Assembly (NCBI GenBank): GCA_029265355.1
Contig: JAJUJL010000005.1
Coordinates: forward strand, 18,208 to 82,207
Reading direction: 5' to 3'
Length of the DNA: 64,000 nucleotides
Source of the DNA: Chloroflexota bacterium
Lineage (GTDB): Bacteria; Chloroflexota; Anaerolineae; Anaerolineales; UBA4823
The notes beneath the pieces are model-generated. The model did no database searches and was not told where the DNA came from. It saw nothing but the letters and a program-made list of their open reading frames with translations. The position numbers and the translations under genes were made by a program. Of this stretch, positions 6,470 through 45,442 are shown one piece after another; position 1 is the stretch's first letter; the number at the start of each line of letters is the position of its first letter.

Positions 6470-7369
6470 ATGGCTGAGAACATCGTCAAAGTGCTGCTGG
6501 TCGAAGACAATCACGACTACGCCTGGATGCTGCGCTTGATCTTGAACCAGGTCGCTCCTAACCGCTATGAGCTGGTTCATAACGAGCGCCTGTCCGAGGC
6601 GCTGCAATCCCTGCAGCAGCAGCAATACGATGTGATCCTGCTGGACCTGTCCCTGCCTGATAGCCGCGGCTTCATCACTTTCTCCCAGCTCTACGAACAC
6701 GCTGCCCATATCCCGATCGTGGTGATGACCGCCATGAACGACAAAGAGCTGGCGTTGCGAGCAGTGCGCGCCGGGGCACAGGACTACCTGGTAAAGGGTG
6801 AGATGGATGTCAACCGCCTGGTGCAGGCCATGCAGTATGCCGTCGAACGACACCAGATGGTCGAAAACCTGCGCCGCCTATCCTTGCTAGATGAACTGAC
6901 GGGGCTGTTGAACCGGCGCGGTTTCCTGACGCTGGCCGACCAGCAAATGAAAATCGCCCAGCGCTCGAGCCGGCCGCTGATGCTCTTTTTTGCCGACCTG
7001 GACGGCTTGAAGCTGATCAACGATCAGTGCGGGCACGCCGAAGGCGACCGGGCGCTGAAGCGCGTGGCAGCCGTCCTGCGCGAGACCTTCCGCTCATCGG
7101 ACTTAATTGCCCGGCTGGGGGGCGATGAGTTCACCGTGTTGGCGATCGACGCCCCGCTCAGCAACGAAGAAACGATGCGGGCGCGCCTGTACGAAGTGCT
7201 CGAGCGTCACAACCAGGCGGACGGCGGCGTTGCGATCTCGCTCAGCCTGGGTGTGGCGCGCTACGACGCCCAACACGCTGGCATCGATCTGGTAGAGCTC
7301 ATGGCGCGCGCCGACCAGGAACTGTACGAGGATAAAGCCCGTAAACGGAGCGGCCCGAGCGAGCCATGA
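6470..7369 (+). CDS. Response regulator with GGDEF diguanylate cyclase output domain
   Basis: Receiver domain (VLLVEDN..., DVILLDLSLPD) followed by a GGDEF domain (RLGGDEF) with RSSD (RxxD) five residues upstream. Start chosen at the ATG preceded by GGGAG; the ORF extends upstream to 6437. Confidence 0.9.
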   Translation: MAENIVKVLLVEDNHDYAWMLRLILNQVAPNRYELVHNERLSEALQSLQQQQYDVILLDLSLPDSRGFITFSQLYEHAAHIPIVVMTAMNDKELALRAVRAGAQDYLVKGEMDVNRLVQAMQYAVERHQMVENLRRLSLLDELTGLLNRRGFLTLADQQMKIAQRSSRPLMLFFADLDGLKLINDQCGHAEGDRALKRVAAVLRETFRSSDLIARLGGDEFTVLAIDAPLSNEETMRARLYEVLERHNQADGGVAISLSLGVARYDAQHAGIDLVELMARADQELYEDKARKRSGPSEP

Positions 7370-7959
7370 ACCAGGCATTGCGAACGCTGTGCGTGTATTG
7401 CGGTTCGTCAGATCGCGTCCACCCGGACTATTTGCAGGCTGCCCGGGAGATGGGCGCCGCAGCGGCGCGACGCGGCCTGGAGATCGTTTACGGCGCTGGC
7501 AGCACCGGGTTGATGGGCGCACTGGCAAACGGTGCGATCGAGGCCGGCGGGCGGGTGATTGGCGTCATCCCGGGTTATTTCAACACACCCCAATTGGCAC
7601 ACAATGGCCTGGCGCGCCTGGAGGTGGTGGACACCATTCACACTCGCAAGGCGCGCCTGGTTGAGCTGGGAGATGCCTTCATCGCCTTACCGGGCGGTTA
7701 TGGCACCTTCGAGGAATTCTTCGAGGTGCTCACCTGGTCGCAGATCGGCCTGCATGCCAAGCCGATCGGACTGCTCAACGTGCGCGGCTATTTCACACCC
7801 CTTTTGGAGATGGTTGAACACGCCCGTCGAGAGGGCTTCATCTATGACGAGCATCGGGCGCTGTTCAGCGCCTGTGATGACCCCGAGACCCTGCTCGACG
7901 CGCTGAGCAACCACCAGCACCCGCATGGGTTGGAGCGCTGGCTGAGCCGAGAGGATTAG
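7366..7959 (+). CDS. LOG-family (TIGR00730-like) nucleotide phosphoribohydrolase
   Basis: 197-aa ORF with the PGGYGTFEE motif and Rossmann-like layout. Its ATG overlaps the stop of the GGDEF gene (ATGA). Confidence 0.85.
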   Translation: MNQALRTLCVYCGSSDRVHPDYLQAAREMGAAAARRGLEIVYGAGSTGLMGALANGAIEAGGRVIGVIPGYFNTPQLAHNGLARLEVVDTIHTRKARLVELGDAFIALPGGYGTFEEFFEVLTWSQIGLHAKPIGLLNVRGYFTPLLEMVEHARREGFIYDEHRALFSACDDPETLLDALSNHQHPHGLERWLSRED

Positions 7960-35061: not shown

Positions 35062-38000
35062 GTGGAGGTGAAATTGCCACGTTTGAAGCTGTACACCCTG
35101 GGAGCGGCGCGCATCGAGCTGCAGGGCAAAGCGGTCACGCTCGACCGCGCCCAGGCTGCTGGTTTGCTCTTCTACCTGGCCGCCAGCGGCAAAGCTCACA
35201 GTCGTGAAACCCTCGCGGCAATGTTTTGGCCAGACAGCGAAACCAGCCGCGCCTTTGCCTACCTGCGACGCTCGATCTTCGCCATCAAGCAAGCGTTGGG
35301 CGAAAGTTGGCTGGCGACTGACAGGGAACTGGTCGCCCTCGCTCGTCCAGGTGATACCTGGCTGGATGCCGCCGAGTTCCGCCGCCTGGTGGCTGCTGCC
35401 CGCCGACACGCACACGCCTCCCCGCAGGCTTGCTCGGAGTGCAGAGAAATGCTGGAAAACGCCGCAAACCTGTACCAGGGCGATTTTTTGGCAGGTTTCA
35501 TCCTGCGCGACAGCCCAGAGTTCGATGACTGGCGTTTCTTCCAGAATGAGGAGTTGCGCCAGCAAGCCGCCTGGGTGCTTCAGGCGCTGGCGATCCATCA
35601 CCAGCGCAGCCAGGAGCTAGAAGAGGCGCTGGCGTACGCCCGCCGCTGGCTGGCGATGGACGCACTGCACGAACCAGCTCACCGCCTGCTGATGGAGCTT
35701 TACGCCCAGCACGGTCAACGCAGCGCCGCTATGCGCCAGTACGAGGAATGCCTTAGATTGCTGCAGGAGGAATTGGGCGTCAAGCCTGAGCCGGAAACAG
35801 CCGCACTGGCGCAGCGCATCCGCCGCGGCGAGGTGCACAAGCTGGATGCGAGCTCGCTCTCTGTTGGCGCATCCGCGCCTGAACAACCATTCCCAGCGGC
35901 AGCCACCTCGCCCCCGGCTGAAAGCGCCGCGCATGTCCGTCCGCCGGTGCACCTGCCAGTGCAGACCACCCCGTTTGTGGGCCGTGAAAGCGAGCTGGCC
36001 GCGATCAGCCAGTTGATCTTAAACCAGGACTGCCGCCTGCTAACGCTGCTTGGCCCAGGCGGCATTGGCAAAACGCGCCTGGCGCTTCAGGCAGCGCTTC
36101 AGGCAGCGTCAGCCAGCAACGGGCGCTTTGCTCACGGCGTGTACTTTGTGCCTTTGGCGTCCGTGCAAGATGCCGAGGGGCTGCCCCAGGCGGTGGCTGG
36201 TACGCTGGGGCTGACCTTCCGCAGCCAGGAAATCATGGGCGTGGAAGGACAATCGCCCCTCGAGCAGTTGCTGGATTACCTGCGCCCGCGGCGCATGCTG
36301 CTGGTGCTGGATAACTTCGAGCAGCTCGTCCCGACGGCTGGCACTCTCTCCAGGATGCTGGAGACGGCGCCAGCCTTGCAGATCATTGTCACCTCGCGCC
36401 AGCGGCTGGATTTGATGGAAGAGTGGGTGATGGATGTGCGCGGCATGGACCTGCCGCCGGAGGAGACGCACAGCGCCATGGAAACATCCAGCGCCGTGCG
36501 CCTCTTTGTACAGGCTGCCCGCCGGGCGCAGGTCGATTTTCAGCTCGGCCAGGCTAACTATGCCCACGTGGCGCGCATTTGCCGCCTGCTGCAGGGAACG
36601 CCGCTGGGCATCGAGCTGGCGGCAGCCTGGGTCAAGCTGCTCTCGTGCCAGGAGATCGCTGTTGAAATCACGCGCAGTCTCGACTTCCTGGAAACCAGTC
36701 AGCGCGGCTACGCCGAGCGACACCAGAGCTTGCGGGCGGTTTTCGATCATTCCTGGGCGCTGCTTTCGGCTGCCGAGCGGCAAGCCCTGCAGCGCCTGTC
36801 GGTCTTCCGCAGCGCTTTCCACCGGGAGGCTGCTCAGCATGTGGCAGGCGCCTCCCTGGGTATGCTCAAGGCCTTGGCCGATCGCTCGCTGTTGCGTTCC
36901 ACCGAGCATGGGCGATTTGCCATCCACGAGTTGCTACGCCAGTTCGCCTGGGAGAGGCTGTCGGCTTCTCCTGGCGAGCCACAGGCCACGCAGCAACGCT
37001 ACGCCTGTTACTACATCAATTACCTGGATGAGATCTCGGCCGGGCTGTACGGTCACGGGCAGACCGAATCGCTGGCGCGCATCCAGGAGAATTGGGAAGA
37101 TGTGCGCGTTGCCTGGAGGCTGGCGCTGCTCGATCAAACCATCAGCCTGCAAGCCGTATCGCGAGCCACAGATGCAATCTGGCTGTACTTCAGTATGCGC
37201 GGGCAGCAGCACGAAGGGCGCGTGGAGTTCGAAGGCGCCATCGCGCAGGTGCGCAAAGCGCACCTGGCTCAACCGGAGAGCCAGCGGCTGAGCGGTTTGC
37301 TGGCGATGTTGCTGGGAAGCGCCTGGAGCATTCACTCGCGGATCGAGTGGAACGAGGCGGTTCACGCCCTGCGCCGGGAGGCGCTCTCTCTGATGCCACA
37401 GTTGCCTGAAGCGTTGCACGCTTCCCTGGCGCTGCGGCTGGCGTTTGGCGTCTGGGCGCTGCCCCAAGAGGAAATCTCTGCCCTGATCGAACAAAGCGTT
37501 GCCGTATTCAAGCGCACCGGCAACCGCTGGGCAGAGGCCATGGCATACCTCGTGATCGGGGACTGGACTGGCACGAGCGGCGGCGAGCGCACCTGGAGCA
37601 ATTACCGGCAGGGTCTGGAGATCATGAAGGAGTTGGGCAATCCCTGGGGGACAGCGCTGGCGCTGCGCTCGTTGGCTGGATTGAATTTCCTGCTGGGTGA
37701 ATACCAGCAGGCAGCCGAGCTGCAGCAGCAGTCCCTGGCGCTGTTCCGTCAGTTTGGCGACCGCTGGCAAGCGACGTACTGCATGCTAGAGCTGGGCCAA
37801 CTAGCCTCAGCGCAGGGTGATTACGAGGCTGCAGTCGCCTGGTACCAGCAGAGCCTGGCCCACGTGCGCGAGATCGGCGACCTGGGGCTGCTCGCCGTGC
37901 ACCTGGAAAGTCTGGGACACACCCTGCTGCTGCAGCAAGAGTACCAGGAAGCGGAAGCTGCTTTCCAGGAAAGCCTGGCGCTATCTCAGCAAACCGGGAA

Positions 38001-38514
38001 CACGCGAGAGGTGGGCATGGCGCTAAGCAACCTGGCGAACATCGACCGGGCGCTTGGTCGCCCGGTGCAAGCCCGCCAGCGCCTGGTAGAAGCGCTGCCG
38101 CTCTTGGAAAGCGCTGGCGAACAGTGGAGTGTACTGGTATGCGTCAAACGCCTGGCAAGCGTATGCATCGAACAATCTTGCAGCGAAGATGCCCGCTCCT
38201 ACCTGCAGCGCTCCCTGGAGCTGGCTTTAGAGTTGGACCTGCCGCTCGAGATCTGCGATGTGTTGGTGCGCGCCGCAGCCTGGATGTTCGAGCAAAACCG
38301 CGCCGAGCGCGGGGTCGAGCTGGCTGCGATGTGCCTGGCGCAAACCTCGATCTTGATGGAGTCGCGCGAAGATGCCATGCACCTGTTGGCGCAGGGAGAC
38401 GACTTGCTGGATGAACAAACCTTTGAGGCGGCTGCCGCCCGCGGACGCGAGCTGGAACCAAAGACCGAACTCAAAGCCATTCTGGCAGAGCTGCAGCCTC
38501 AAGACGCCGGATGA
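35062..38514 (+). CDS. SARP/AfsR-like regulator: OmpR-type wHTH + BTAD + NB-ARC-like P-loop NTPase + TPR array (STAND class)
   Basis: 1150-aa ORF. BTAD signature (HEPAHRLLMELYAQHGQRSAAMRQYEECLRLL), Walker A GPGGIGKT (36052..36075), Walker B-like LLVLDNFEQ, and TPR-like repeats in the C-terminal half. GTG start; the exact start is uncertain. Confidence 0.85.
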   Translation: MEVKLPRLKLYTLGAARIELQGKAVTLDRAQAAGLLFYLAASGKAHSRETLAAMFWPDSETSRAFAYLRRSIFAIKQALGESWLATDRELVALARPGDTWLDAAEFRRLVAAARRHAHASPQACSECREMLENAANLYQGDFLAGFILRDSPEFDDWRFFQNEELRQQAAWVLQALAIHHQRSQELEEALAYARRWLAMDALHEPAHRLLMELYAQHGQRSAAMRQYEECLRLLQEELGVKPEPETAALAQRIRRGEVHKLDASSLSVGASAPEQPFPAAATSPPAESAAHVRPPVHLPVQTTPFVGRESELAAISQLILNQDCRLLTLLGPGGIGKTRLALQAALQAASASNGRFAHGVYFVPLASVQDAEGLPQAVAGTLGLTFRSQEIMGVEGQSPLEQLLDYLRPRRMLLVLDNFEQLVPTAGTLSRMLETAPALQIIVTSRQRLDLMEEWVMDVRGMDLPPEETHSAMETSSAVRLFVQAARRAQVDFQLGQANYAHVARICRLLQGTPLGIELAAAWVKLLSCQEIAVEITRSLDFLETSQRGYAERHQSLRAVFDHSWALLSAAERQALQRLSVFRSAFHREAAQHVAGASLGMLKALADRSLLRSTEHGRFAIHELLRQFAWERLSASPGEPQATQQRYACYYINYLDEISAGLYGHGQTESLARIQENWEDVRVAWRLALLDQTISLQAVSRATDAIWLYFSMRGQQHEGRVEFEGAIAQVRKAHLAQPESQRLSGLLAMLLGSAWSIHSRIEWNEAVHALRREALSLMPQLPEALHASLALRLAFGVWALPQEEISALIEQSVAVFKRTGNRWAEAMAYLVIGDWTGTSGGERTWSNYRQGLEIMKELGNPWGTALALRSLAGLNFLLGEYQQAAELQQQSLALFRQFGDRWQATYCMLELGQLASAQGDYEAAVAWYQQSLAHVREIGDLGLLAVHLESLGHTLLLQQEYQEAEAAFQESLALSQQTGNTREVGMALSNLANIDRALGRPVQARQRLVEALPLLESAGEQWSVLVCVKRLASVCIEQSCSEDARSYLQRSLELALELDLPLEICDVLVRAAAWMFEQNRAERGVELAAMCLAQTSILMESREDAMHLLAQGDDLLDEQTFEAAAARGRELEPKTELKAILAELQPQDAG

Positions 38515-38525
38515 CCAACGCATGG

Positions 38526-38553
38526 CAGGCTGCGCCGTCGTCGACGCAGCCTG
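38526..38553 (+). terminator. Hairpin after the STAND regulator gene
   Basis: CAGGCTGCG-N10-CGCAGCCTG followed by TTCATATT (weak U tract). Confidence 0.45.
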
Positions 38554-38623
38554 TTCATATTCCGCGCAAAGTTTTTGCGGCGCGGCACCCACGATGGATG
38601 CTTAGCAGCCCTGGCGAAAGAAC

Positions 38624-39151
38624 TCACCCGCCAATGGCGTTGATCAGCGCCGCCGAGCCGCCCAGCAGGAAACCCAGAGCGATATTGCCGATAATGATGA
38701 CTACAAAACCAACCGCGATCGTGATCAGCGCTTTCATGTTGTCGAGATCCAGGCCCTGGCGCACGGCGATGAAGCCGGCAGCCAGGCTCCAGATCAAACC
38801 GATAAACGCGCCAATGCAGGGAATGATGCTCAAAAGTTGCGGCGCGTAAGCGAAGCCGAGCACGCGCAGCATTTCTTCGATGGTTGCCTGGCCGCCAAAG
38901 AGAGTCGTGCCGACAAAATAGGTGACCACTGCCCAAACGATCCAGCCCACAAATGTCCAGATCAGCGTGCCAAAGAAGCCACCCATGCCCCCTGTCCCGC
39001 TCACCATCGAACCGAACAAGCTGCCCAGGCTTGCCAACACAGCCACCACGGCGACTATGATCACCGCTTGCATCGTAGCTGCCGAGTCGTGCTCAACCTC
39101 TTCGAAGGTTTTTACATCCAACTTGAAAACTCCAATGATGCGCTCTAACAC
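38624..39151 (-). CDS. Yip1-domain membrane protein
   Basis: 175-aa ORF with a soluble N-terminus (IIGVFKLDVKTFEEVEHD) then 5 hydrophobic helices. GTG start preceded by AGGAG. Confidence 0.7.
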   Translation of the reverse strand: MLERIIGVFKLDVKTFEEVEHDSAATMQAVIIVAVVAVLASLGSLFGSMVSGTGGMGGFFGTLIWTFVGWIVWAVVTYFVGTTLFGGQATIEEMLRVLGFAYAPQLLSIIPCIGAFIGLIWSLAAGFIAVRQGLDLDNMKALITIAVGFVVIIIGNIALGFLLGGSAALINAIGG

Positions 39152-39261: not shown

Positions 39262-39291
39262 TTGACAGCTAACCCTGCAATGTGGTAAACT
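39262..39291 (+). promoter_or_regulatory. Promoter of the SAM-riboswitch/metH operon
   Basis: TTGACA, 18 nt ending TGg (extended -10), TAAACT. It lies about 38 nt upstream of the riboswitch P1. Confidence 0.5.
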
Positions 39292-39328
39292 GCGCAGCAT
39301 CAACGCACTGGAGCTCATCATCCAGGCG

Positions 39329-39530
39329 CTCATCCAGAGAGGCGGAGGGACCGGCCCTGTGAAGCCTCGGCAACCGGCTAAAGCCGGCAAACGGTAAGCG
39401 CTGCGATCAGCAAACCGGGAGCAATTGCAAAGCTCAACGGGTTAAAGGTTGCAGGTGACCGTCTTTAGAGAGGGTGCCAACTCCGGCAGCGGATGCCAGC
39501 CATATGGCTTGCAGCCACTGGAAGATGAGG
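39329..39530 (+). promoter_or_regulatory. SAM-I (S-box) riboswitch aptamer
   Basis: Conserved blocks CTCATCCAGAGAGGCGGAGGGACCGGCCCTGTGAAGCC..GGCAACC ... GGTGCCAACTCCGGCAGC ... GGAAGATGAG. P1 pairs CUCAUC with GAUGAG. Confidence 0.9.
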
Positions 39531-39553
39531 AATGAAAGCACGCGCTTTTGCAG

Positions 39554-39580
39554 CCTCTCTTCCGGAGAGGTATTTTTTTA
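39554..39580 (+). terminator. Riboswitch expression-platform terminator
   Basis: CCTCTC / GAGAGG hairpin followed by TATTTTTTTA. The 5' half (CCTCTCTTCC) can alternatively pair with the P1 3' strand GGAAGA(T)GAGG, forming the antiterminator. Confidence 0.75.
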
Positions 39581-39583
39581 TCT

Positions 39584-40036
39584 ATGGAAAAGATGAAGGT
39601 ATTCATTGCCGCCCCTCGCCCGATAAAGGAGCCCGGTTACGCCGGGGAAATCCGCGCCGCGGTCGAGGTCACCCGTCAAGTCGGACATCAACCTTTCCTG
39701 GCTTACGAAGAGATCACCCGGCGCGGCCTGGTCGATCCGGCAGCCTTCATGCCTTTCGTGCGCCAGCATCTTCACACCTCCCAGCTTATGCTGCTGCTGT
39801 ACTCGCCGGCGCTGCGCGGTGGATTGATTGAGGCTGGCATCGCTTATGCCCTGGATGTGCCAGTCTGGCTGCTGCACCGCGCCGGGCTGGTGGTTTCCTC
39901 TTCGGCGTTGGGCTGCGCCCAGCAGATCTGTTGCTACACCAGCGCCGGCGATCTCAAGCCAGCCCTTTCCGGGCTGTATCAAACTCAACTGCCGGCAGAC
40001 CTATCTCACTTGCCGGTACATGGAGACAGTAGATGA
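39584..40036 (+). CDS. Uncharacterised small protein, flavodoxin-like / nucleoside 2-deoxyribosyltransferase-like fold suspected
   Basis: ORF between the SAM-riboswitch terminator and metH. GC3-rich codons; its stop overlaps the metH ATG (ATGA). MKVFIAAP... and ...GGLIEAGIAYALDVPVWLL resemble the beta1 strand and G-x-x-E-x-G-x-A region of NDT-like proteins. Start chosen after the terminator. Confidence 0.6.
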   Translation: MEKMKVFIAAPRPIKEPGYAGEIRAAVEVTRQVGHQPFLAYEEITRRGLVDPAAFMPFVRQHLHTSQLMLLLYSPALRGGLIEAGIAYALDVPVWLLHRAGLVVSSSALGCAQQICCYTSAGDLKPALSGLYQTQLPADLSHLPVHGDSR

Positions 40037-43000
40037 AAAGGATTTACACAAACCGCGCCTACCTGGATGCGCTGCAGGAGCGCGTGCTGGTCTTCGATGG
40101 CGCTATGGGCACCAACCTGCAGGCTCAGAAGCTGAGCGCCGAGGATTTCGGCGGTGAACGGTACAACGGCTGTAACGATTACCTGGTGATCAGCAAGCCG
40201 GAAGCTGTCGAAAAAGTGCACCGCGCTTTCCTGGAAGTCGGCGTGGATGTGCTGGAAACCGACACCTTCCGTTCCAACCGCCTGACGCTAGCGGAATACG
40301 GCCTGGAAGGACAGACGCTGGAAATCAACCGCGCTGCGGCTGCCCTGGCGCGCCGCCTGGCAGACGAGTACAGCACGCCGGAGAAACCGCGCTTTGTTGC
40401 CGGCTCGATCGGACCGTCTGGCAAGCTGCCCTCCGCTGATGATCCGGAACTGTCCAACATCAGCTTCGATGAGTTGAGCGATATCTTCCGCCAGCAGGCG
40501 GTGGGCCTGATCGAGGGGGGGGTGGACCTGCTGCTGATAGAAACCTCGCAGGATATCCTGGAGGTGCGCGCCGCGGTCGCTGGTATCTTCCAGGCTTTCG
40601 AAGAGACCGGGGTGCACCTGCCCATCCAGGCGCAGGTGACCCTGGACACCACCGGGCGCATGCTTCTGGGCACCGACATTGCCGCGGCGCTTTCGATCCT
40701 GGAGGGGCTGGGCATCGATGTGGTTGGACTGAACTGCTCCACAGGCCCCGAGCACATGCGCCAGCCGATCGCCTATCTGGGGGAGCACGCCGTCCTGCCG
40801 GTTTCGTGCATACCCAACGCTGGCCTACCACTGAACGTGGATGGCGAAGCCGTCTACCCGCTGGAGCCGCAGCCATTCGCCGAAGCGATGCTCGAGTTCG
40901 TGGAGAAGAACCACATCTCGGTGGTCGGCGGCTGCTGCGGCACCACACCCGCTCACTTAAAGCTGCTGGTTGAAAAACTCAACGGCAGGAAGCGCCCACC
41001 GCGCCCACAAACGGATGCGCCGCGCCTGGCCTCCGCCACGCAAGCGGTTGCTATGCATCAGGTGCCGCCGCCCTTCCTGATCGGCGAGCGCTGCAACGCC
41101 CAGGGCAGCCGCAAGTTCAAGCGCCTGCTACTGGCGGAAGATTACGACTCCATCCTGGAAATTGCTCGCGAGCAGGTGGAGGGCGGCGCACACGCGCTGG
41201 ACATCTCGGTAGCGGTGACAGAGCGCCCCGACGAGGGCGAGTTGATGCGCAAGGTGGTCAAAAAGCTGGCGATGGGCGTGGAAGCGCCGCTGGTCATCGA
41301 TACCACCGAGCCTGAAGTGATGGAAATTGCGCTCAAAACCGCCCCCGGGCGCTGCTTGATCAACTCCACCCACCTGGAATCTGGTCGCGCCCGGGCTGAT
41401 CGCGTCTTCAGCCTGGCTAAAGCGCACAACGCCGCCGTCCTGGTGCTGACCATTGACGAAGCCGGCATGGCAAAGACCGCCCAGGCCAAGTTGGATGTGG
41501 CGCGGCGCATTTACCAGATGGCGGTCGAAGAGCATGGGCTGCGCCCGGAGGCGCTGGTATTCGACACCCTGACCTTTACCCTGGCGACCGGCGACCCTGA
41601 GTTTGCCGCCTCAGCCATCGAAACCATTGAGGGCATCCGCCGCATCAAGCAGGAGCTGCCCGGGGTGCTCACTTCCCTGGGGGTCAGCAATGTCTCTTTT
41701 GGATTGGCGCCGCATGCCCGCCCGGTACTGAACAGCGTCATGCTCTATCACAGCGTCCAGGCTGGATTGGATATGGCCATCGTCAACCCGGCGCACATCA
41801 CTCCCTACGCCGAGATTCCGGAGCAGGAGCGCGCCCTCTGCGAAGACCTGATTTTCAACCGCCGGGCAGACGCTCTGCAGCGTTTCATTGAGCACTTCGA
41901 GAGCGCCGGTCGCTCCGAGTCGGATAACGCCAGCAAGTCTGATCCGACTGAAGGGATGACGCCAGCCGAGCGGCTGGGCTGGCGCATCCTGCACCGCCAC
42001 AAGGAAGGCGTCGAGGCAGATATCGATGCCTTACTGGCAGCGGCAAGCGAGGGCAGCCGGCACGAGAACGCGGTGAGAATTCTCAACACCATCCTGCTGC
42101 CGGCCATGAAAGAAGTCGGTGATCGTTTTGGCGCCGGCGAGCTGATCCTGCCCTTTGTGCTGCAATCGGCAGAGGTGATGAAGAAAGCCGTCGCCCACCT
42201 GGAACAGTACCTGGAACGCCTGGAGGGAACCACGAAAGGAGTGGTCGTGCTGGCGACGGTGTATGGCGATGTGCACGATATTGGTAAGAACCTGGTCAAA
42301 ACCATCTTATCGAACAATGGCTACACGGTCATCGACCTGGGCAAACAGGTGCCGGCAGAGACGATCATCAGCAGGGCGGTGGAGGCCAAAGCCAGCGCGA
42401 TCGGGTTGAGCGCCCTGCTGGTCAACACCAGCAAACAAATGCCATTGATCGTCAACGAGTTGCAGCGGCGGGGACTAAATTTCCCTGTGCTGGTGGGCGG
42501 CGCCGCCATCAACCGGCGCTTTGGCTGGCGCATCCTGTACACCGAAGACGGTCGGCCCTACGAACCGGGCGTGTTTTATTGCAAGGATGCCTTCGAAGGG
42601 CTGGCGGTGATGGATGCTTTGGTGGACGAGCAGGCGCGCCCGGTGTTGCTGGAACAATTGCGGCGCGATGCCGGTCGCGAGATCGAGCGCACTGCCAAGA
42701 CACGTTCACAAGCCTCGGTGGCGCGGCGCAGCGTGACGCCGGCCGCCTCGATCCCCCGCCCGCCCTCCTGGGGGCCGCGCGTGGTGCGCCAGATGCCGCT
42801 GGAGCTGGTCTTCCAGCACCTGTACAAAAACGAGTTATTTCGTCTTTCCTGGGGCGCCAAGAACGCCCACGGCGAAGAATGGGAGCGCCTGCAAGCCGAG
42901 TTCGAAACCCGCTTGCAGAAGATGCAGCGCGAAGCGCTGCGCAGCGGCTGGCTGGTTCCCCAGGGCACCTACGGCTACTGGCCCGCCCAGGCAGATGGCG

Positions 43001-43539
43001 ATGAACTGGTGCTGTATGACCCAGCTACGCTCTCCTCCCAGCCGGTGGAAATCCAGCGCTTCGCCTTTCCGCGACAGCCGGATGGCGACCAGCTCTGCCT
43101 GGCGGATTACTTCGCATCCGTGGAAGACGGCGTGATGGACGTGGTGGCATTTCAGGTGGTGACCGTGGGACAGGAAGCTACCGAGCGCTTCGACCGCCTG
43201 CAGGCTGCCGGCGACTACTCGGAAGCCTACTTCTTGCACGGGCTGGCTGTGCAAACCGCCGAAGCTGCTGCTGAATACCTACATCGCCATATCCGCCGTG
43301 AGCTTGGCCTGGAACCAGAGCAGGGCAAACGCTATTCGTGGGGCTATCCAGCCATCCCTGACCTGGAGGATCACCGCAAAGTGTTCGATTTGCTGCCCGC
43401 CGAGGAGCAATTGGGCATGGGACTGACCGCAGCCTACCAGCTTCTGCCAGAACAATCCACCGCCGCCATCATCGTGCACCATCCCCAGGCCAGGTATTAC
43501 AGCGTCGGCGAAAGCCGGGTTGAGCAGTTGATGAGATGA
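40033..43539 (+). CDS. metH: Cobalamin-dependent methionine synthase (full length)
   Basis: 1168-aa ORF with an Hcy-binding domain (GLNCSTGP, GGCCGTTP), pterin-binding domain, B12-binding DxHxxG (GDVHDIGKN) and a C-terminal reactivation domain. Confidence 0.95.
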   Translation: MKRIYTNRAYLDALQERVLVFDGAMGTNLQAQKLSAEDFGGERYNGCNDYLVISKPEAVEKVHRAFLEVGVDVLETDTFRSNRLTLAEYGLEGQTLEINRAAAALARRLADEYSTPEKPRFVAGSIGPSGKLPSADDPELSNISFDELSDIFRQQAVGLIEGGVDLLLIETSQDILEVRAAVAGIFQAFEETGVHLPIQAQVTLDTTGRMLLGTDIAAALSILEGLGIDVVGLNCSTGPEHMRQPIAYLGEHAVLPVSCIPNAGLPLNVDGEAVYPLEPQPFAEAMLEFVEKNHISVVGGCCGTTPAHLKLLVEKLNGRKRPPRPQTDAPRLASATQAVAMHQVPPPFLIGERCNAQGSRKFKRLLLAEDYDSILEIAREQVEGGAHALDISVAVTERPDEGELMRKVVKKLAMGVEAPLVIDTTEPEVMEIALKTAPGRCLINSTHLESGRARADRVFSLAKAHNAAVLVLTIDEAGMAKTAQAKLDVARRIYQMAVEEHGLRPEALVFDTLTFTLATGDPEFAASAIETIEGIRRIKQELPGVLTSLGVSNVSFGLAPHARPVLNSVMLYHSVQAGLDMAIVNPAHITPYAEIPEQERALCEDLIFNRRADALQRFIEHFESAGRSESDNASKSDPTEGMTPAERLGWRILHRHKEGVEADIDALLAAASEGSRHENAVRILNTILLPAMKEVGDRFGAGELILPFVLQSAEVMKKAVAHLEQYLERLEGTTKGVVVLATVYGDVHDIGKNLVKTILSNNGYTVIDLGKQVPAETIISRAVEAKASAIGLSALLVNTSKQMPLIVNELQRRGLNFPVLVGGAAINRRFGWRILYTEDGRPYEPGVFYCKDAFEGLAVMDALVDEQARPVLLEQLRRDAGREIERTAKTRSQASVARRSVTPAASIPRPPSWGPRVVRQMPLELVFQHLYKNELFRLSWGAKNAHGEEWERLQAEFETRLQKMQREALRSGWLVPQGTYGYWPAQADGDELVLYDPATLSSQPVEIQRFAFPRQPDGDQLCLADYFASVEDGVMDVVAFQVVTVGQEATERFDRLQAAGDYSEAYFLHGLAVQTAEAAAEYLHRHIRRELGLEPEQGKRYSWGYPAIPDLEDHRKVFDLLPAEEQLGMGLTAAYQLLPEQSTAAIIVHHPQARYYSVGESRVEQLMR

Positions 43540-43549
43540 GGGTTATGCT

Positions 43550-45442
43550 ATGAGTGAGATGGGTGACGCATCTGCAGAAAAAGCGAACAAGTTCTTGGCT
43601 CTTTTAGAGAGCTCCAGCGTGCCAATCCTGGGCGACGGCGCCATGGGTACCATGCTGAACGCCCGCGGCGTCAACTTCGAGCAGTGCCTGGATGCTTTGA
43701 ACCTTACCCGCCCAGCCCTGGTGGCGGAAATTCACCGCGCTTATATCGATGCCGGCGCCCAGGTAATCCAGACCAATACCTTCGGCGCCAACCGCTTCAA
43801 GCTGGCCGCTCATGGCCTGGAGGACAAAGTGGCCGAGATCAACCGCTCTGGCGTCGAGCTGGCGCGGCGCGTGGTGATGGCATCTTTCAAGGATGTGCTG
43901 GTGGCTGGCGATGTCGGCCCGCTGGGTGTGCGCATGGCGCCCTACGGTCGCGTCCAGCCCGAACAAGCACGCCGCGCCTTTGCCGAGCAGATCGTCGCCC
44001 TGGCAGAAGCCGGCGCAGACCTGATCATCATCGAGACTTTCAGTGACGCGTATGAGATCCGCGAGGCGGTGGCCGCCGCCAAAGAAGTCACCTCCCTGCC
44101 GGTGATCGCTTCGATGACCTTCACGCGGGACGACCGCACACTGCTGGGCGATTCGCCGACCCGTGTGGCAACCTTGCTGGTGGAAAGCGGCGCAGACCTG
44201 ATCGGCGTCAACTGTTCCGGCGGGCCAGCCCAGTTGTGGCGCATCCTGCGCCAGATGCGCGCCGTTGCACCCCAAGCGCGCTTCTCGATCATGCCCAACG
44301 CCGGCTGGCCCGAGCAGGCTGGCGGGCGCATTATGTACCCGGCCAACCCGGATTACTTTGGCGAATATGCCCTGGCTTTTTGCGAGGCGGGTGCAGTGCT
44401 GGTCGGCGGTTGCTGCGGTACAACTCCCCAGCACATCGCGGCCATGCGCCGCGCCCTGGACGAGCAATCCACCGGCTGCGCTCCCACAGCAGGAGAGTTG
44501 TCGCTGCCCTTCGAGAGCGAGGAGCCGTTCAGCTCGCCCGACCGGCCCTCCCACATGGCGCAGAAACTGGCGGCTGGGCAGTTTGTGGTTTCGGTGGAAA
44601 TGGATCCACCGCGCGGCCTGTCGGCCCACAAACTGCTGGCAGGCGCCAGTCTGCTGGCAGAAGCAGGGGCAGATGTGATCAACGTCGCCGATTCCCCCAT
44701 GGCGCGCATGCGCATGAGCCCCTGGGCGGTGTGCGACCTGGTGCAGCGCACCGTGCAGGTGGAAACGACCCTGCACTTCCCCACCCGCGGTCGCAATCTG
44801 CTGCGCGTGCAGGGCGATCTCCTGGCAGCGCACGCCCTGGGCATTCGCAATGTCTTTGTGGTGATGGGCGACCCCACCTCCATCGGCGACTACCCCGAAG
44901 CCATGGACGACTACGACCTGGTGCCTTCTGGCCTGATCAAGCTGATCAAGCAAAACTTCAACGCCGGTGTGGACCACGCCGGCAGCGATATCGGCCAGCC
45001 AACCGCTTACTTCGTGGGCTGTGCATTGAATCTGACTCCTCAGGATGTGGACCGGGAAATCAAGAACCTGCGCCGAAAAATCGAGGCGGGCGCAGACTTT
45101 GTGCTCACCCAGCCGGTGTACGAACCAAAACTGGCGGAAGCCTTCCTGCAGCGTTACGCCGACCAGTTCGGCCCGCTGCACACTCCCGTATTAGTGGGCG
45201 TGCTGCCGCTCTACAGCGCCCGCCATGCCGCCTTCCTGCACAATGAAGTGCCAGGCATCTCGATCCCGGAAGAGATGCAGCAGCGCATTCGCCAGGCTGG
45301 CGAGGCCGCGCCGCGCGAGGGGATTCAGATTGCTCTTGAGTTAGTGGAGCAGATGCGTTCCTGGGCCGCCGGCATCTACATTATGCCGCAGTTCAATCGC
45401 TACGACCTGGCAGCCGAGATCATCGAAGGGGTGCGTCAATAA
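43550..45442 (+). CDS. yitJ: Bifunctional homocysteine S-methyltransferase / 5,10-methylenetetrahydrofolate reductase (YitJ-like)
   Basis: The N-terminal Hcy-methyltransferase domain has intact Zn-Cys motifs (GVNCSGGP, GGCCGTTP). The C-terminal half is MTHFR-like. The fusion architecture matches B. subtilis YitJ. Confidence 0.88.
   Translation: MSEMGDASAEKANKFLALLESSSVPILGDGAMGTMLNARGVNFEQCLDALNLTRPALVAEIHRAYIDAGAQVIQTNTFGANRFKLAAHGLEDKVAEINRSGVELARRVVMASFKDVLVAGDVGPLGVRMAPYGRVQPEQARRAFAEQIVALAEAGADLIIIETFSDAYEIREAVAAAKEVTSLPVIASMTFTRDDRTLLGDSPTRVATLLVESGADLIGVNCSGGPAQLWRILRQMRAVAPQARFSIMPNAGWPEQAGGRIMYPANPDYFGEYALAFCEAGAVLVGGCCGTTPQHIAAMRRALDEQSTGCAPTAGELSLPFESEEPFSSPDRPSHMAQKLAAGQFVVSVEMDPPRGLSAHKLLAGASLLAEAGADVINVADSPMARMRMSPWAVCDLVQRTVQVETTLHFPTRGRNLLRVQGDLLAAHALGIRNVFVVMGDPTSIGDYPEAMDDYDLVPSGLIKLIKQNFNAGVDHAGSDIGQPTAYFVGCALNLTPQDVDREIKNLRRKIEAGADFVLTQPVYEPKLAEAFLQRYADQFGPLHTPVLVGVLPLYSARHAAFLHNEVPGISIPEEMQQRIRQAGEAAPREGIQIALELVEQMRSWAAGIYIMPQFNRYDLAAEIIEGVRQ

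Follow-up and report, generated by a model that had tools for sequence, protein, structure and literature searches.

The window, by which we mean the whole stretch of 64,000 nucleotides of DNA from a Chloroflexota bacterium that was analyzed, contains a small gene (39593..40036, + strand) that sits between a SAM-I riboswitch and metH on the same strand. The SAM-I (S-box) aptamer (39327..39531, +) was identified with Rfam RF00162, whose gathering score of 44.4 it exceeds at 68 bits (E 1e-13), and it carries insertions of ~85 nt in the P3 arm and ~20 nt in P4. The expression platform (39518..39579, +) was delineated by a terminator scan, which found a hairpin at 39553-39571 followed by a T-run at 39573-39579, and by an MFE fold. 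The 3' strand of P1 (39518-39530) can pair with the 5' arm of the terminator (39553-39565) to form a competing antiterminator, and it is this antiterminator that the MFE fold of 39505-39600 gives (z = -3.1). A promoter-like site at 39262..39291 (+), composed of TTGACA, an 18-nt spacer and TG-TAAACT, scored 10/12 in a consensus scan and is a match to the consensus only. These RNA elements, which are evident from sequence and folding, lie directly 5' of the small gene, and the assignment of the gene to an S-box element in the first-pass annotation is therefore upheld. They suggest the following response to SAM: at high SAM, the P1 helix of the aptamer would form and the terminator (39553-39579) would halt transcription, while at low SAM the 3' strand of P1 would pair with the 5' arm of the terminator and allow read-through.

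Downstream of the small gene, metH (40033..43539, +) encodes a cobalamin-dependent methionine synthase that is complete in its five domains (PF02574, PF00809, PF02607, PF02310, and PF02965). Its ATG at 40033 overlaps the TGA of the small gene at 40034-40036, so the ATGA junction described earlier is indeed present in the sequence, and because the stop and start codons overlap in this way, translation of the two genes is probably coupled. A yitJ-like gene (43550..45442, +), which encodes a fusion of a homocysteine S-methyltransferase domain (PF02574) and MTHFR (PF02219), begins 10 nt past the metH stop, and the gene that follows it is convergent, leaving the yitJ-like gene as the last of the operon. 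The small gene would thus be the first cistron of a SAM-repressed operon with the order SAM-I riboswitch, small gene, metH, and yitJ-like gene.

The reading frame of the small gene is open from an ATG at 39584 (MEKMKVF...) to the TGA at 40034-40036, and translation from that ATG, which had been taken as the start, would give 150 aa. The conserved start is, however, the second in-frame ATG at 39593 (MKVF...), which gives 147 aa. Most homologues begin at the equivalent position, and a locus with 67% identity (L011) has no upstream ATG and carries AGGAGA 4-5 nt 5' of the ATG corresponding to 39593; the earlier proposal is probably off by 9 nt. The GGAGAGG at 39564-39570, which had been suggested as a Shine-Dalgarno sequence, lies 13 nt 5' of the ATG at 39584 and 22 nt 5' of that at 39593, and such distances make this role doubtful. 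The description of the ORF as GC3-rich holds only in part, since its GC3 is moderately high at 0.67, compared with 0.77 for metH and an overall GC of 0.61. That the ORF is a genuine protein-coding gene, as the first-pass annotation assumed, is almost certain from its conservation, its shared motifs and its dN/dS of 0.18-0.32, which indicates clear purifying selection. About 60 distinct homologues were found; 29 word-indexed homologues are 40-93% identical and have invariant motifs in common, and 37 profile matches score below 1e-10. Wherever a source is named, the homologues come from MAGs of Chloroflexota/Anaerolineae, with at least 26 GTDB genomes carrying the gene, and the database copies are all labeled “hypothetical protein” except for one automatic “nucleoside 2-deoxyribosyltransferase” call.

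Comparison of loci of ~12 kb from these relatives showed that the linkage to metH and to S-box elements, for which a survey of gene neighborhoods had been proposed, is conserved. A homocysteine methyltransferase gene, usually metH, follows the small gene on the same strand in 38 of the 51 informative lineages, with metH at a distance of 200 nt or less in 25 lineages and of 0.2-2.3 kb in 9. In four lineages (L036, L075, L076, and L077) the adjoining gene instead encodes a stand-alone, B12-independent PF02574 methyltransferase, and the ATGA overlap is found with this enzyme as well; overlap of the stop codon with the start of the methyltransferase gene occurs in 11 lineages. The upstream neighbors are highly variable while the pair of small gene and methyltransferase gene persists. 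After dereplication to 54 lineages, a same-strand SAM-I aptamer was detected upstream of the small gene in 14, L011 and L037 among them, and in 11 of these 14 the distance from the end of the aptamer to the start codon is 52-170 nt. These calls are from Rfam scans, and a regular expression for the S-box core missed one of them (L006). In L043 and L060 the aptamer precedes the small gene although no methyltransferase gene adjoins it. Membership of the small gene in the S-box regulon is accordingly very likely. The linkage to metH may in part come from shared ancestry within one class, and in 13 lineages the small gene is kept with no methionine gene nearby, which means that its function does not strictly depend on the methyltransferase. 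Genes for nucleotide house-cleaning (HIT, HD_3/YfbR-like, and Ham1) recur in the same neighborhoods. An anti-phage defense effector of the NDT-like/TIR-like kind was considered and rejected, as PADLOC gave no defense-system match for the small gene and its neighbors are housekeeping and methionine genes.

Direct searches with the small protein gave little: the search of Pfam returned only a sub-threshold match to PF05014 (12 bits for the window protein against a cut-off of 28.8), that of NCBIfam returned no match, and PDB sequences were not matched by either the protein or the family profile. Sub-threshold matches to PF05014 recur in 24 of 30 family members (best E 5.5e-5). Homology was therefore established transitively, through bridging relatives. 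The family profile aligns with these more distant relatives in hhalign at a probability of 99.8 (E 3e-29); they in turn match BcmB in the PDB at 2.5e-11 and Rcl/DNPH1 at 1e-7, in alignments that pair the Glu residues, and some of them exceed the threshold of PF05014 itself. The structural evidence agrees well with this relationship. The AlphaFold (AF2) model (pLDDT 88, pTM 0.83) is a three-layer alpha/beta structure with five strands, and the best 50 Foldseek matches in the PDB are all BcmB/MilB/BlsM, DNPH1/Rcl or NDTs, with E values from 9e-6 to 7e-4 and TM-scores normalized by target length of 0.54-0.80. The assignment by eye of the fold to the nucleoside 2-deoxyribosyltransferase-like branch has thus proved correct, both by Foldseek on the model and by the profile comparisons, and there is little doubt that the protein is a divergent NDT-superfamily member. 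Within the NDT/DNPH1/MilB superfamily, it and its homologues form a small clade of their own, so far confined to Anaerolineae.

Residues that are expected to line the active site were compared using the numbering of the 147-aa protein and counts over 54 representatives unless stated otherwise, with equivalences taken from profile alignments and spacing, not from model coordinates. The G-x-x-E-x-G-x-A motif that had been recognized by eye is present as G77-L-I-E80-A-G82-I-A84, and its Glu aligns with the nucleophile of Rcl/DNPH1/MilB/BcmB, the equivalence to BcmB and Rcl being obtained via the bridging profile. E80, the predicted nucleophile, is invariant (54/54), but retrieval of the loci relied on the peptide patterns LRGGLIExG[IM] and VS[SH]S[AM]LGCA, and the invariance of the segment from L74 to G82 is therefore partly an ascertainment effect. 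The aromatic residue of beta1 is F4 (48/50), which aligns with BcmB F29, the equivalent by spacing of MilB F17; in MilB, Phe at this beta1 position admits the 2'-OH of ribose, whereas Tyr is found in deoxy-specific enzymes (PMC10603095). The acid/base Asp of the catalytic triad (DNPH1 D80 and MilB D78; for its role, see PMC10603095) is absent, and the aligned position is Val56 (Val in 49/54), directly followed by a near-invariant Arg57. Also absent is the Ser six residues before the Glu (DNPH1 S98 and MilB S97), which binds the 5'-phosphate (PMC4081090, PMC10603095); an invariant Leu74 stands in its place and is followed by an invariant Arg75. S102 (53/54), S104 (51/54), and C108 (invariant) are further conserved, and an acidic E40 in the beta2-alpha2 segment lies near MilB E62, an equivalence that is uncertain by ~2 residues. 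With the catalytic Asp and the phosphate-binding Ser both missing, the protein could be non-catalytic or use unfamiliar chemistry.

The reading we prefer is that the small gene is a real, SAM-controlled NDT-like gene whose product is an active N-ribosyl enzyme serving the methyl cycle, and for this statement as a whole a probability of about 0.45 seems appropriate. That the protein is active as an N-ribosyl hydrolase or transferase has a slightly better than even chance. Its substrate would be a ribonucleoside-type compound that carries something other than a plain phosphate at the 5' position, and the enzyme would cleave or transfer the N-ribosyl bond. Since the gene is linked across lineages both to SAM riboswitches and to homocysteine methyltransferases with two unrelated types of cofactor, the best guess for the substrate is an adenine nucleoside arising from SAM use, namely SAH or adenosine, or, with less likelihood, MTA or 5'-deoxyadenosine. 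A putative N-ribosidase activity toward a nucleoside derived from SAM is plausible, while a substrate specifically of the SAH/adenosine/MTA type can be suggested only tentatively. Removal of the substrate might keep the flux from homocysteine to methionine running when SAM is scarce. A narrower version of the proposal, which we consider rather unlikely, is that the protein is an unrecognized, SAM-riboswitch-controlled N-ribosidase of the NDT superfamily that hydrolyzes SAH or the adenosine released from it. In that case Glu80 would work together with an Arg-rich pocket (R57 and R75) that takes the place of the usual Asp/Ser site, and the enzyme would provide Anaerolineae with a third, non-orthologous route for clearing adenosyl compounds, besides those linked to MtnN/Pfs and AhcY, with the homocysteine passing to MetH or to the stand-alone methyltransferase.

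Another possibility, with a similarly small share of the probability, is that the protein is an N-glycosidase of nucleotide-pool house-cleaning, comparable to DNPH1 or MilB, with a modified (ribo)nucleoside monophosphate as its substrate and the nearby HIT, HD_3/YfbR-like and Ham1 gene products as its functional kin. Its position at metH and the riboswitch would then be incidental and follow from a gene order that is conserved in Anaerolineae. The nearest structures are in fact N-glycosidases for CMP/hmCMP and hmdUMP, and because the HIT, HD_3/YfbR-like and Ham1 genes recur in its neighborhoods, a general nucleotide role would fit equally well. Genes for HIT, HD_3/YfbR-like 5'-nucleotidase, Ham1, and HAD proteins recur just 3' of metH; in L027, where metH is absent, the very next gene after the small gene is HD_3, and the 13 lineages without a methionine gene nearby point in the same direction. 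The replacement of the phosphate-binding Ser by an invariant Leu is, however, at odds with a nucleotide substrate, and in several clades a SAM riboswitch stands directly 5' of the small gene, even in L006, L043, and L060, where metH is missing or lies at a distance of 2 kb. Moreover, synteny alone hardly explains ATGA coupling to two kinds of homocysteine methyltransferase, or a pair that persists beside varying upstream neighbors.

The missing catalytic Asp raises the less probable alternative of a non-catalytic, ligand-binding accessory protein, whose NDT-like pocket would bind a nucleoside (SAM, SAH, or adenosine) and which would serve as a modulator or chaperone for the homocysteine-binding module (PF02574) of MetH, of the stand-alone methyltransferase and of YitJ. 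PF02574 is the sole domain common to all of the coupled partners, and the tight overlap of stop and start codons in 11 lineages hints that the protein and the methyltransferase are made in stoichiometric amounts. Nevertheless, all 54 representatives retain the nucleophilic Glu within an unchanged G-G-x-x-E-x-G setting (subject to the ascertainment effect described above), which is usually a sign of catalysis, no fusion to a methyltransferase domain was detected among the family members, and the small gene persists in 13 lineages without an adjoining partner.

A cobalamin-related helper of MetH, either a flavodoxin-like partner in reductive reactivation, as the first-pass annotation had also proposed, or a protein that handles the nucleotide loop of cobamides, is quite improbable. 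The three-layer alpha/beta fold is flavodoxin-like, and in most lineages the gene is immediately 5' of that for a B12-dependent enzyme, but neither Pfam nor the best 50 Foldseek matches include a flavodoxin or a B12-binding domain, the FMN-loop and DxHxxG motifs are absent, and no cobalamin riboswitch was found in any scanned locus. What largely rejects this idea is the ATGA coupling of the small gene to a B12-independent, PF02574-only methyltransferase in the four lineages named above. Finally, a spurious ORF or plain spacer in the leader between the riboswitch and metH, which might be argued from the shortness of the ORF and its want of curated annotation or an above-threshold Pfam or NCBIfam match, is refuted by conservation and selection, as ~60 lineages keep the ORF at identities down to 40% with invariant motifs and a dN/dS far under 1, and the confident fold prediction and demonstrable homology to a known superfamily leave it a vanishingly small chance.

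The present findings extend the SAM riboswitch regulon by a protein family that had no annotation and suggest that an N-glycosidase scaffold of the NDT type has been recruited to the step from homocysteine to methionine in Anaerolineae, a widespread and poorly studied class of sediments, sludge, and oceans. The coupling to both B12-dependent and B12-independent methyltransferases makes this a sharp, testable hypothesis. Should SAH or adenosine turn out to be the substrate, the activated methyl cycle would gain a new enzyme, and the metabolism reconstructed for these MAGs would have to be revised; a general nucleotide hydrolase would instead extend a known superfamily to a modest degree. Our literature searches for NDT-like proteins linked to metH, S-box elements or methionine salvage found nothing relevant, in agreement with the remark in the first-pass annotation that no such partner of MetH or member of the S-box regulon was known to be described.

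Among known systems, the CMP (hydroxymethyl-CMP) N-glycosidases BcmB/MilB/BlsM (PDB 4jen, 4jem, 4ohr, and 5vto) are the best structural matches, with TM-scores (target length) of up to 0.80. They share with the small protein an alpha/beta fold of ~130-170 residues, the nucleophilic Glu at the same G-x-(G)-x-x-E-x-G helix start, and, in the case of MilB, Phe instead of Tyr in beta1 (F4 corresponding to MilB F17) and the acidic E40 near MilB E62. They differ in sequence, with an identity of 15-18%, in the changes of MilB Asp78 to Val56 and Ser97 to Leu74, and in the Phe22/Arg23 loop, which is K-V-P-R in the small-protein family (A-P-R-P-I-K in the window). Their genes belong to antibiotic biosynthesis clusters, in contrast with the SAM-regulated methionine operon of the small gene. 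DNPH1/Rcl, the 2'-deoxynucleoside 5'-phosphate N-hydrolase (5-hydroxymethyl-dUMP N-hydrolase), is similar in that the bridging profile pairs its Glu104 (rat E93) with E80, and its partner-subunit Ser (rat S117) aligns with S102. Of its Y24/D80/E104, however, only the Glu is kept (Y to F and D to V), the phosphate ligand S98 is gone, and DNPH1 is a deoxy-specific sanitizer of the nucleotide pool. The NDTs (PF05014; PDB 1f8x, 8pqp, and others) share the fold and, as the motif would predict, a covalent-Glu mechanism, whereas the family members all fall under the gathering threshold of PF05014, lack the Asp and have another genomic context. The MTA/SAH nucleosidase MtnN/Pfs and the SAH hydrolase AhcY clear adenosyl by-products of SAM and return homocysteine to methionine synthesis, the task proposed for the small protein, but their likeness to the small protein would be one of function only, because their folds, those of PNP/UDP phosphorylases and of an NAD-dependent hydrolase, respectively, are unrelated and no similarity in sequence or structure was found. 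The S-box regulon of Firmicutes comprises, for example, the metE, metK, yitJ, metIC, and mtn genes of Bacillus, with yitJ as a classical member. Although we found no NDT-like gene described as a member, and the small gene is restricted to Anaerolineae, that regulon and the operon in the window have in common the aptamer class, the terminator/antiterminator platform and the control of methionine genes, including one that is yitJ-like. The small gene is very probably a new member of the S-box regulon, tied to homocysteine methylation and not to cobalamin.

The small open reading frame (ORF) proposed in the first-pass annotation was confirmed on the forward strand, running in frame from an ATG at 39584 (MEKMKVF...) to a TGA at 40034-40036, as was its overlap with metH, whose ATG lies at 40033 in an ATGA junction. 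The start codon had, however, been set at 39584, whereas the conserved start, used by most homologues, is the second in-frame ATG at 39593 (MKVF..., 147 aa); residues are numbered on this 147-aa form throughout. L011, one of the related loci carrying a homologue (67% identical), lacks the upstream ATG and has AGGAGA 4-5 nt 5' of the ATG matching 39593. The GGAGAGG of the terminator arm, previously suggested as a possible Shine-Dalgarno sequence, lies 13 nt 5' of the ATG at 39584 and 22 nt 5' of that at 39593 and is therefore a doubtful ribosome-binding site. Downstream, metH (40033-43539, +) encodes a protein with the full set of five domains, the activation domain among them, and is followed 10 nt past its stop by a yitJ-like gene that fuses a homocysteine S-methyltransferase domain to MTHFR (PF02574 + PF02219; 43550-45442). 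Because of this spacing, and because the next gene is convergent, the operon order is riboswitch, small gene, metH and yitJ-like fusion, which closes the operon. The same fusion also follows metH or a stand-alone methyltransferase in L016, L022, L036, L064 and L077, the latter arrangement being that of L036 and L077. Upstream of the riboswitch, a 1150-aa BTAD/NB-ARC/TPR regulator and a divergent Yip1 membrane-protein gene occupy 35062-39151, in an order shared with the closest relatives, L011 and L037. Elsewhere in the window, 7366-7959 (+) encodes a LOG/SLOG-family protein (PF03641, E 5e-43) with no link to the operon; LOG/SLOG is a further Rossmannoid family with nucleotide-processing members.

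A word-indexed search retrieved 29 homologues (40-93% identity), none with a curated name, and an exhaustive profile search gave 37 proteins below 1e-10 and 204 below 1e-3. In public annotation the homologues are "hypothetical protein," apart from one automatic "nucleoside 2-deoxyribosyltransferase" (NDT). The motifs FMPFVRQ, ELRGGLIEAGIAYA and VSSSALGCA are conserved in their alignment, codon comparison of the small gene with L037 and L011 yielded dN/dS of 0.18-0.32 at dS of ~0.7-0.8, and all 26 matches in a species-representative genome collection are from Chloroflexota, mostly Anaerolineae/Anaerolineales MAGs. By these signatures of coding sequence, the small ORF is a gene.

The first-pass annotation had suggested looking for conserved linkage among relatives, and the neighborhoods do show it. 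When 78 related loci and the window were dereplicated at 90% protein identity, 62 lineages remained, and a homocysteine methyltransferase gene stands behind the small gene on the same strand in 38 of the 51 informative ones: metH within 200 nt in 25, metH at 0.2-2.3 kb past one to three small genes (often 4HBT thioesterase and DUF5946) in 9, and a stand-alone PF02574 homocysteine S-methyltransferase of 322-327 aa, with neither pterin nor B12 domains, in 4 (L036, L075, L076 and L077). Thirteen lineages lack such a gene over at least 1.5 kb, their neighbors being SpoIIE, RuvB, TsaE, PhyH, HD_3 and others, and in 11 the contig is too short for a call. Eleven lineages, some with metH and others with the B12-independent enzyme, have an ATGA or TGATG junction at which the small-gene stop and the methyltransferase start overlap. 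Since the upstream neighbors vary widely (Yip1, ArsR- or GntR-type HTH-PBP_like regulators, GGDEF, a sulfatase-like membrane protein and others), the pair survives rearrangements and is more than one frozen block. Distance-based clustering of the small proteins (UPGMA dendrogram) places metH-linked members in most clusters, and unlinked ones are concentrated in two or three.

Several local arrangements recur among these loci. An ArsR- or GntR-type HTH regulator with a PBP_like domain lies immediately 5' of the small gene in six: L001 (4818-5858, -), L002 (4921-5934, -), L008 (1049-2056, -), L016 (4832-6004), L022 (4883-5995) and L064 (892-2019). In the last three it adjoins a putative solute-binding protein/permease/ATPase cluster, as judged from ORF N-termini only, and in L016 its stop overlaps the small-gene start. 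In a lower-GC clade the small gene is followed by genes for a 4HBT (hotdog) thioesterase, a Cys-rich DUF5946 protein or both. A SAM riboswitch was detected ahead of them in L006 (4190-5172), L043 (1971-2396), L060 (5273-5713) and L068 (5567-5992); no aptamer was found in the other such loci, L019 (6399-6821), L020/L056, L062 and L063. The metH genes in two pieces and different frames in L008 (2682-6358, where the gene caller gave only the C-terminal fragment), L017 (6447-9993) and L064 (2438-5980) are frameshifts, pseudogenes or assembly errors.

The single SAM-I (S-box) aptamer found in the window (39327-39531, +; 68 bits against an Rfam gathering score of 44.4) is preceded by a promoter-like site (39262-39291, +) and followed by a terminator hairpin (39553-39571, +) with a T-run directly 3'. 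In the fold of 39505-39600 (z = -3.1), the P1 3' strand (39518-39530, +) pairs with the terminator 5' arm as an antiterminator, and the expression platform is, by this predicted pairing, a classical transcriptional OFF switch. The aptamer is unusually long, at 205 nt against a 108-position model, with insertions of ~85 nt inside the P3 arm and ~20 nt in P4, an expanded form kept in L011 and L037. Among the 54 lineages with at least 300 nt of upstream sequence, 14 have a same-strand SAM-I aptamer above the Rfam threshold 5' of the small gene. In 11 of them its end is 52-170 nt from the start codon (the window, L006, L011, L028, L037, L043, L044, L060, L072, L075 and L077), and in 3 it lies 0.9-1.7 kb upstream, with same-strand ORFs between (L051/54, L066-68 and L076). 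A riboswitch also lies directly before the small gene in loci without an adjacent methyltransferase gene, namely L060 (none within 2.4 kb downstream), L043 (none in the remaining 0.8 kb of contig) and L006 (metH only after 2 kb; here a terminator hairpin stands between aptamer and small gene). By its predicted regulatory elements, the small gene therefore belongs to the S-box regulon independently of the methyltransferase gene. Rfam scans revealed no cobalamin riboswitch or further Rfam family in any locus.

The AlphaFold2 model of the protein is confident (pLDDT 88, pTM 0.83) and comprises five beta-alpha units and a disordered tail (138-147). All of the best 50 Foldseek PDB matches fall within a single superfamily (E 9e-6 to 7e-4; TM-score normalized by target length, 0.54-0.80) and are CMP N-glycosidases (BcmB, MilB and BlsM), DNPH1/Rcl or NDTs. 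Direct comparison with Pfam gave only a sub-threshold match to PF05014 (E 0.2), such matches being found in 24 of 30 family members (best 5.5e-5), and neither the protein nor its family profile retrieved any PDB sequence. More distant relatives of ~130 aa from the profile search form a bridge: hhalign connects them to the family profile with probability 99.8 (E 3e-29), some exceed PF05014's own threshold, and their profile matches BcmB at 2.5e-11, Rcl/DNPH1 at ~1e-7 and NDTs at 1e-5 to 1e-4 in the PDB. Sequence homology, traced indirectly through these relatives, thus agrees with the predicted fold, and the by-eye assignment to the NDT-like branch was correct. A broader NDT-like clade with a EKGVGLGIEAGYA motif bridges the family to PF05014; some of its members are fused to NUDIX, class I methyltransferase and DinB/MST domains (the distant relatives P0075, P0091 and P0100).

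Residue equivalences were derived from profile alignments leading from the family through the bridging relatives to the PDB, with residue roles taken from published work (PMC10603095, PMC4081090). E80, invariant in 54 of 54 sequences, falls at the position of the covalent nucleophile (rat Rcl E93, human DNPH1 E104, MilB E103, BcmB E115). F4 (48/50) aligns with BcmB F29, the counterpart of MilB F17 and DNPH1 Y24; MilB Phe17 accommodates the ribose 2'-OH, and F17Y moves preference to deoxyribose (PMC10603095), so the family, having the MilB-type Phe, looks ribo-tolerant. S102 (53/54) matches rat Rcl S117, with which one subunit contributes to the phosphate site of its neighbor. The position of the triad Asp (DNPH1 D80, MilB D78) is occupied by Val56, followed by Arg57 (49/54), and the Ser that binds the 5'-phosphate, six residues N-terminal to the Glu (DNPH1 S98, MilB S97), is replaced by invariant Leu74, followed by invariant Arg75. 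E40 (51/54) falls in the beta2-alpha2 segment holding MilB E62 and DNPH1 E55/H56, in a register uncertain by ~2 residues. C108 is invariant, and we know of no counterpart. Retrieval of the loci by peptide patterns from L74-G82 and VSSSALGCA accounts for part of the invariance of these segments (an ascertainment effect), although pattern-free homologue sets show the same conserved core. In our reading, the scaffold and nucleophile of an N-ribosyl hydrolase/transferase are kept and the pocket for the ribose and 5'-group is rebuilt; the protein belongs to the superfamily, yet falls outside the DNPH1/MilB nucleotide-hydrolase type.

At low SAM, read-through and coupled translation would produce the small protein with the methyltransferase, and E80 may cleave or transfer an N-ribosyl bond; we put the probability of such catalysis at roughly 0.55. 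A role in the activated methyl cycle is favored over a cobalamin-related one because the regulatory signal is SAM and the partner homocysteine methyltransferases include both B12-dependent and B12-independent enzymes. MetH reactivation and the SAM-/SMM-dependent PF02574 enzymes both involve SAM/SAH chemistry, and both consume homocysteine. That the substrate is of the SAH/adenosine/MTA type is a tentative suggestion: the absence of the phosphate-binding Ser, together with the two newly conserved Arg, would fit a 5'-substituent with a carboxylate, as in SAH, and adenosine or MTA/5'-deoxyadenosine might be acted on instead. Adenosine removal pulls the AhcY equilibrium.

Nucleotide house-cleaning genes, namely HIT, HD_3/YfbR-like 5'-nucleotidase (fused to HIT in L002), Ham1/ITPase-like and HAD, recur directly behind metH (L001, L002, L016, L017, L021, L022, L027, L028 and L038), with HD_3 in L027 standing directly after the small gene and metH missing there. 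They would suit a DNPH1/MilB-like nucleotide-pool hydrolase only incidentally linked to metH, but the lost phosphate-binding Ser and the riboswitches directly in front of the small gene make this unlikely. A protein that binds nucleosides without catalysis and partners the PF02574 module is more improbable still. The flavodoxin-like helper for MetH reactivation offered in the first-pass annotation, or one handling cobamides, has little to commend it, given B12-independent partners and SAM as the regulatory signal. A spurious ORF is scarcely conceivable with such codon conservation.

A full-text literature search found no NDT-like protein tied to metH, S-box elements or methionine salvage, in line with the earlier statement that none was known. 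The finding is a solid, phylogenetically narrow comparative-genomics lead. The small-gene protein resembles NDT/DNPH1/MilB enzymes in fold and nucleophile, but it lacks the triad Asp and the phosphate-binding Ser, two features by which the active site of nucleotide N-glycosidases is defined. It forms a new, divergent branch within an established superfamily, and its regulatory and metabolic setting is likewise new.
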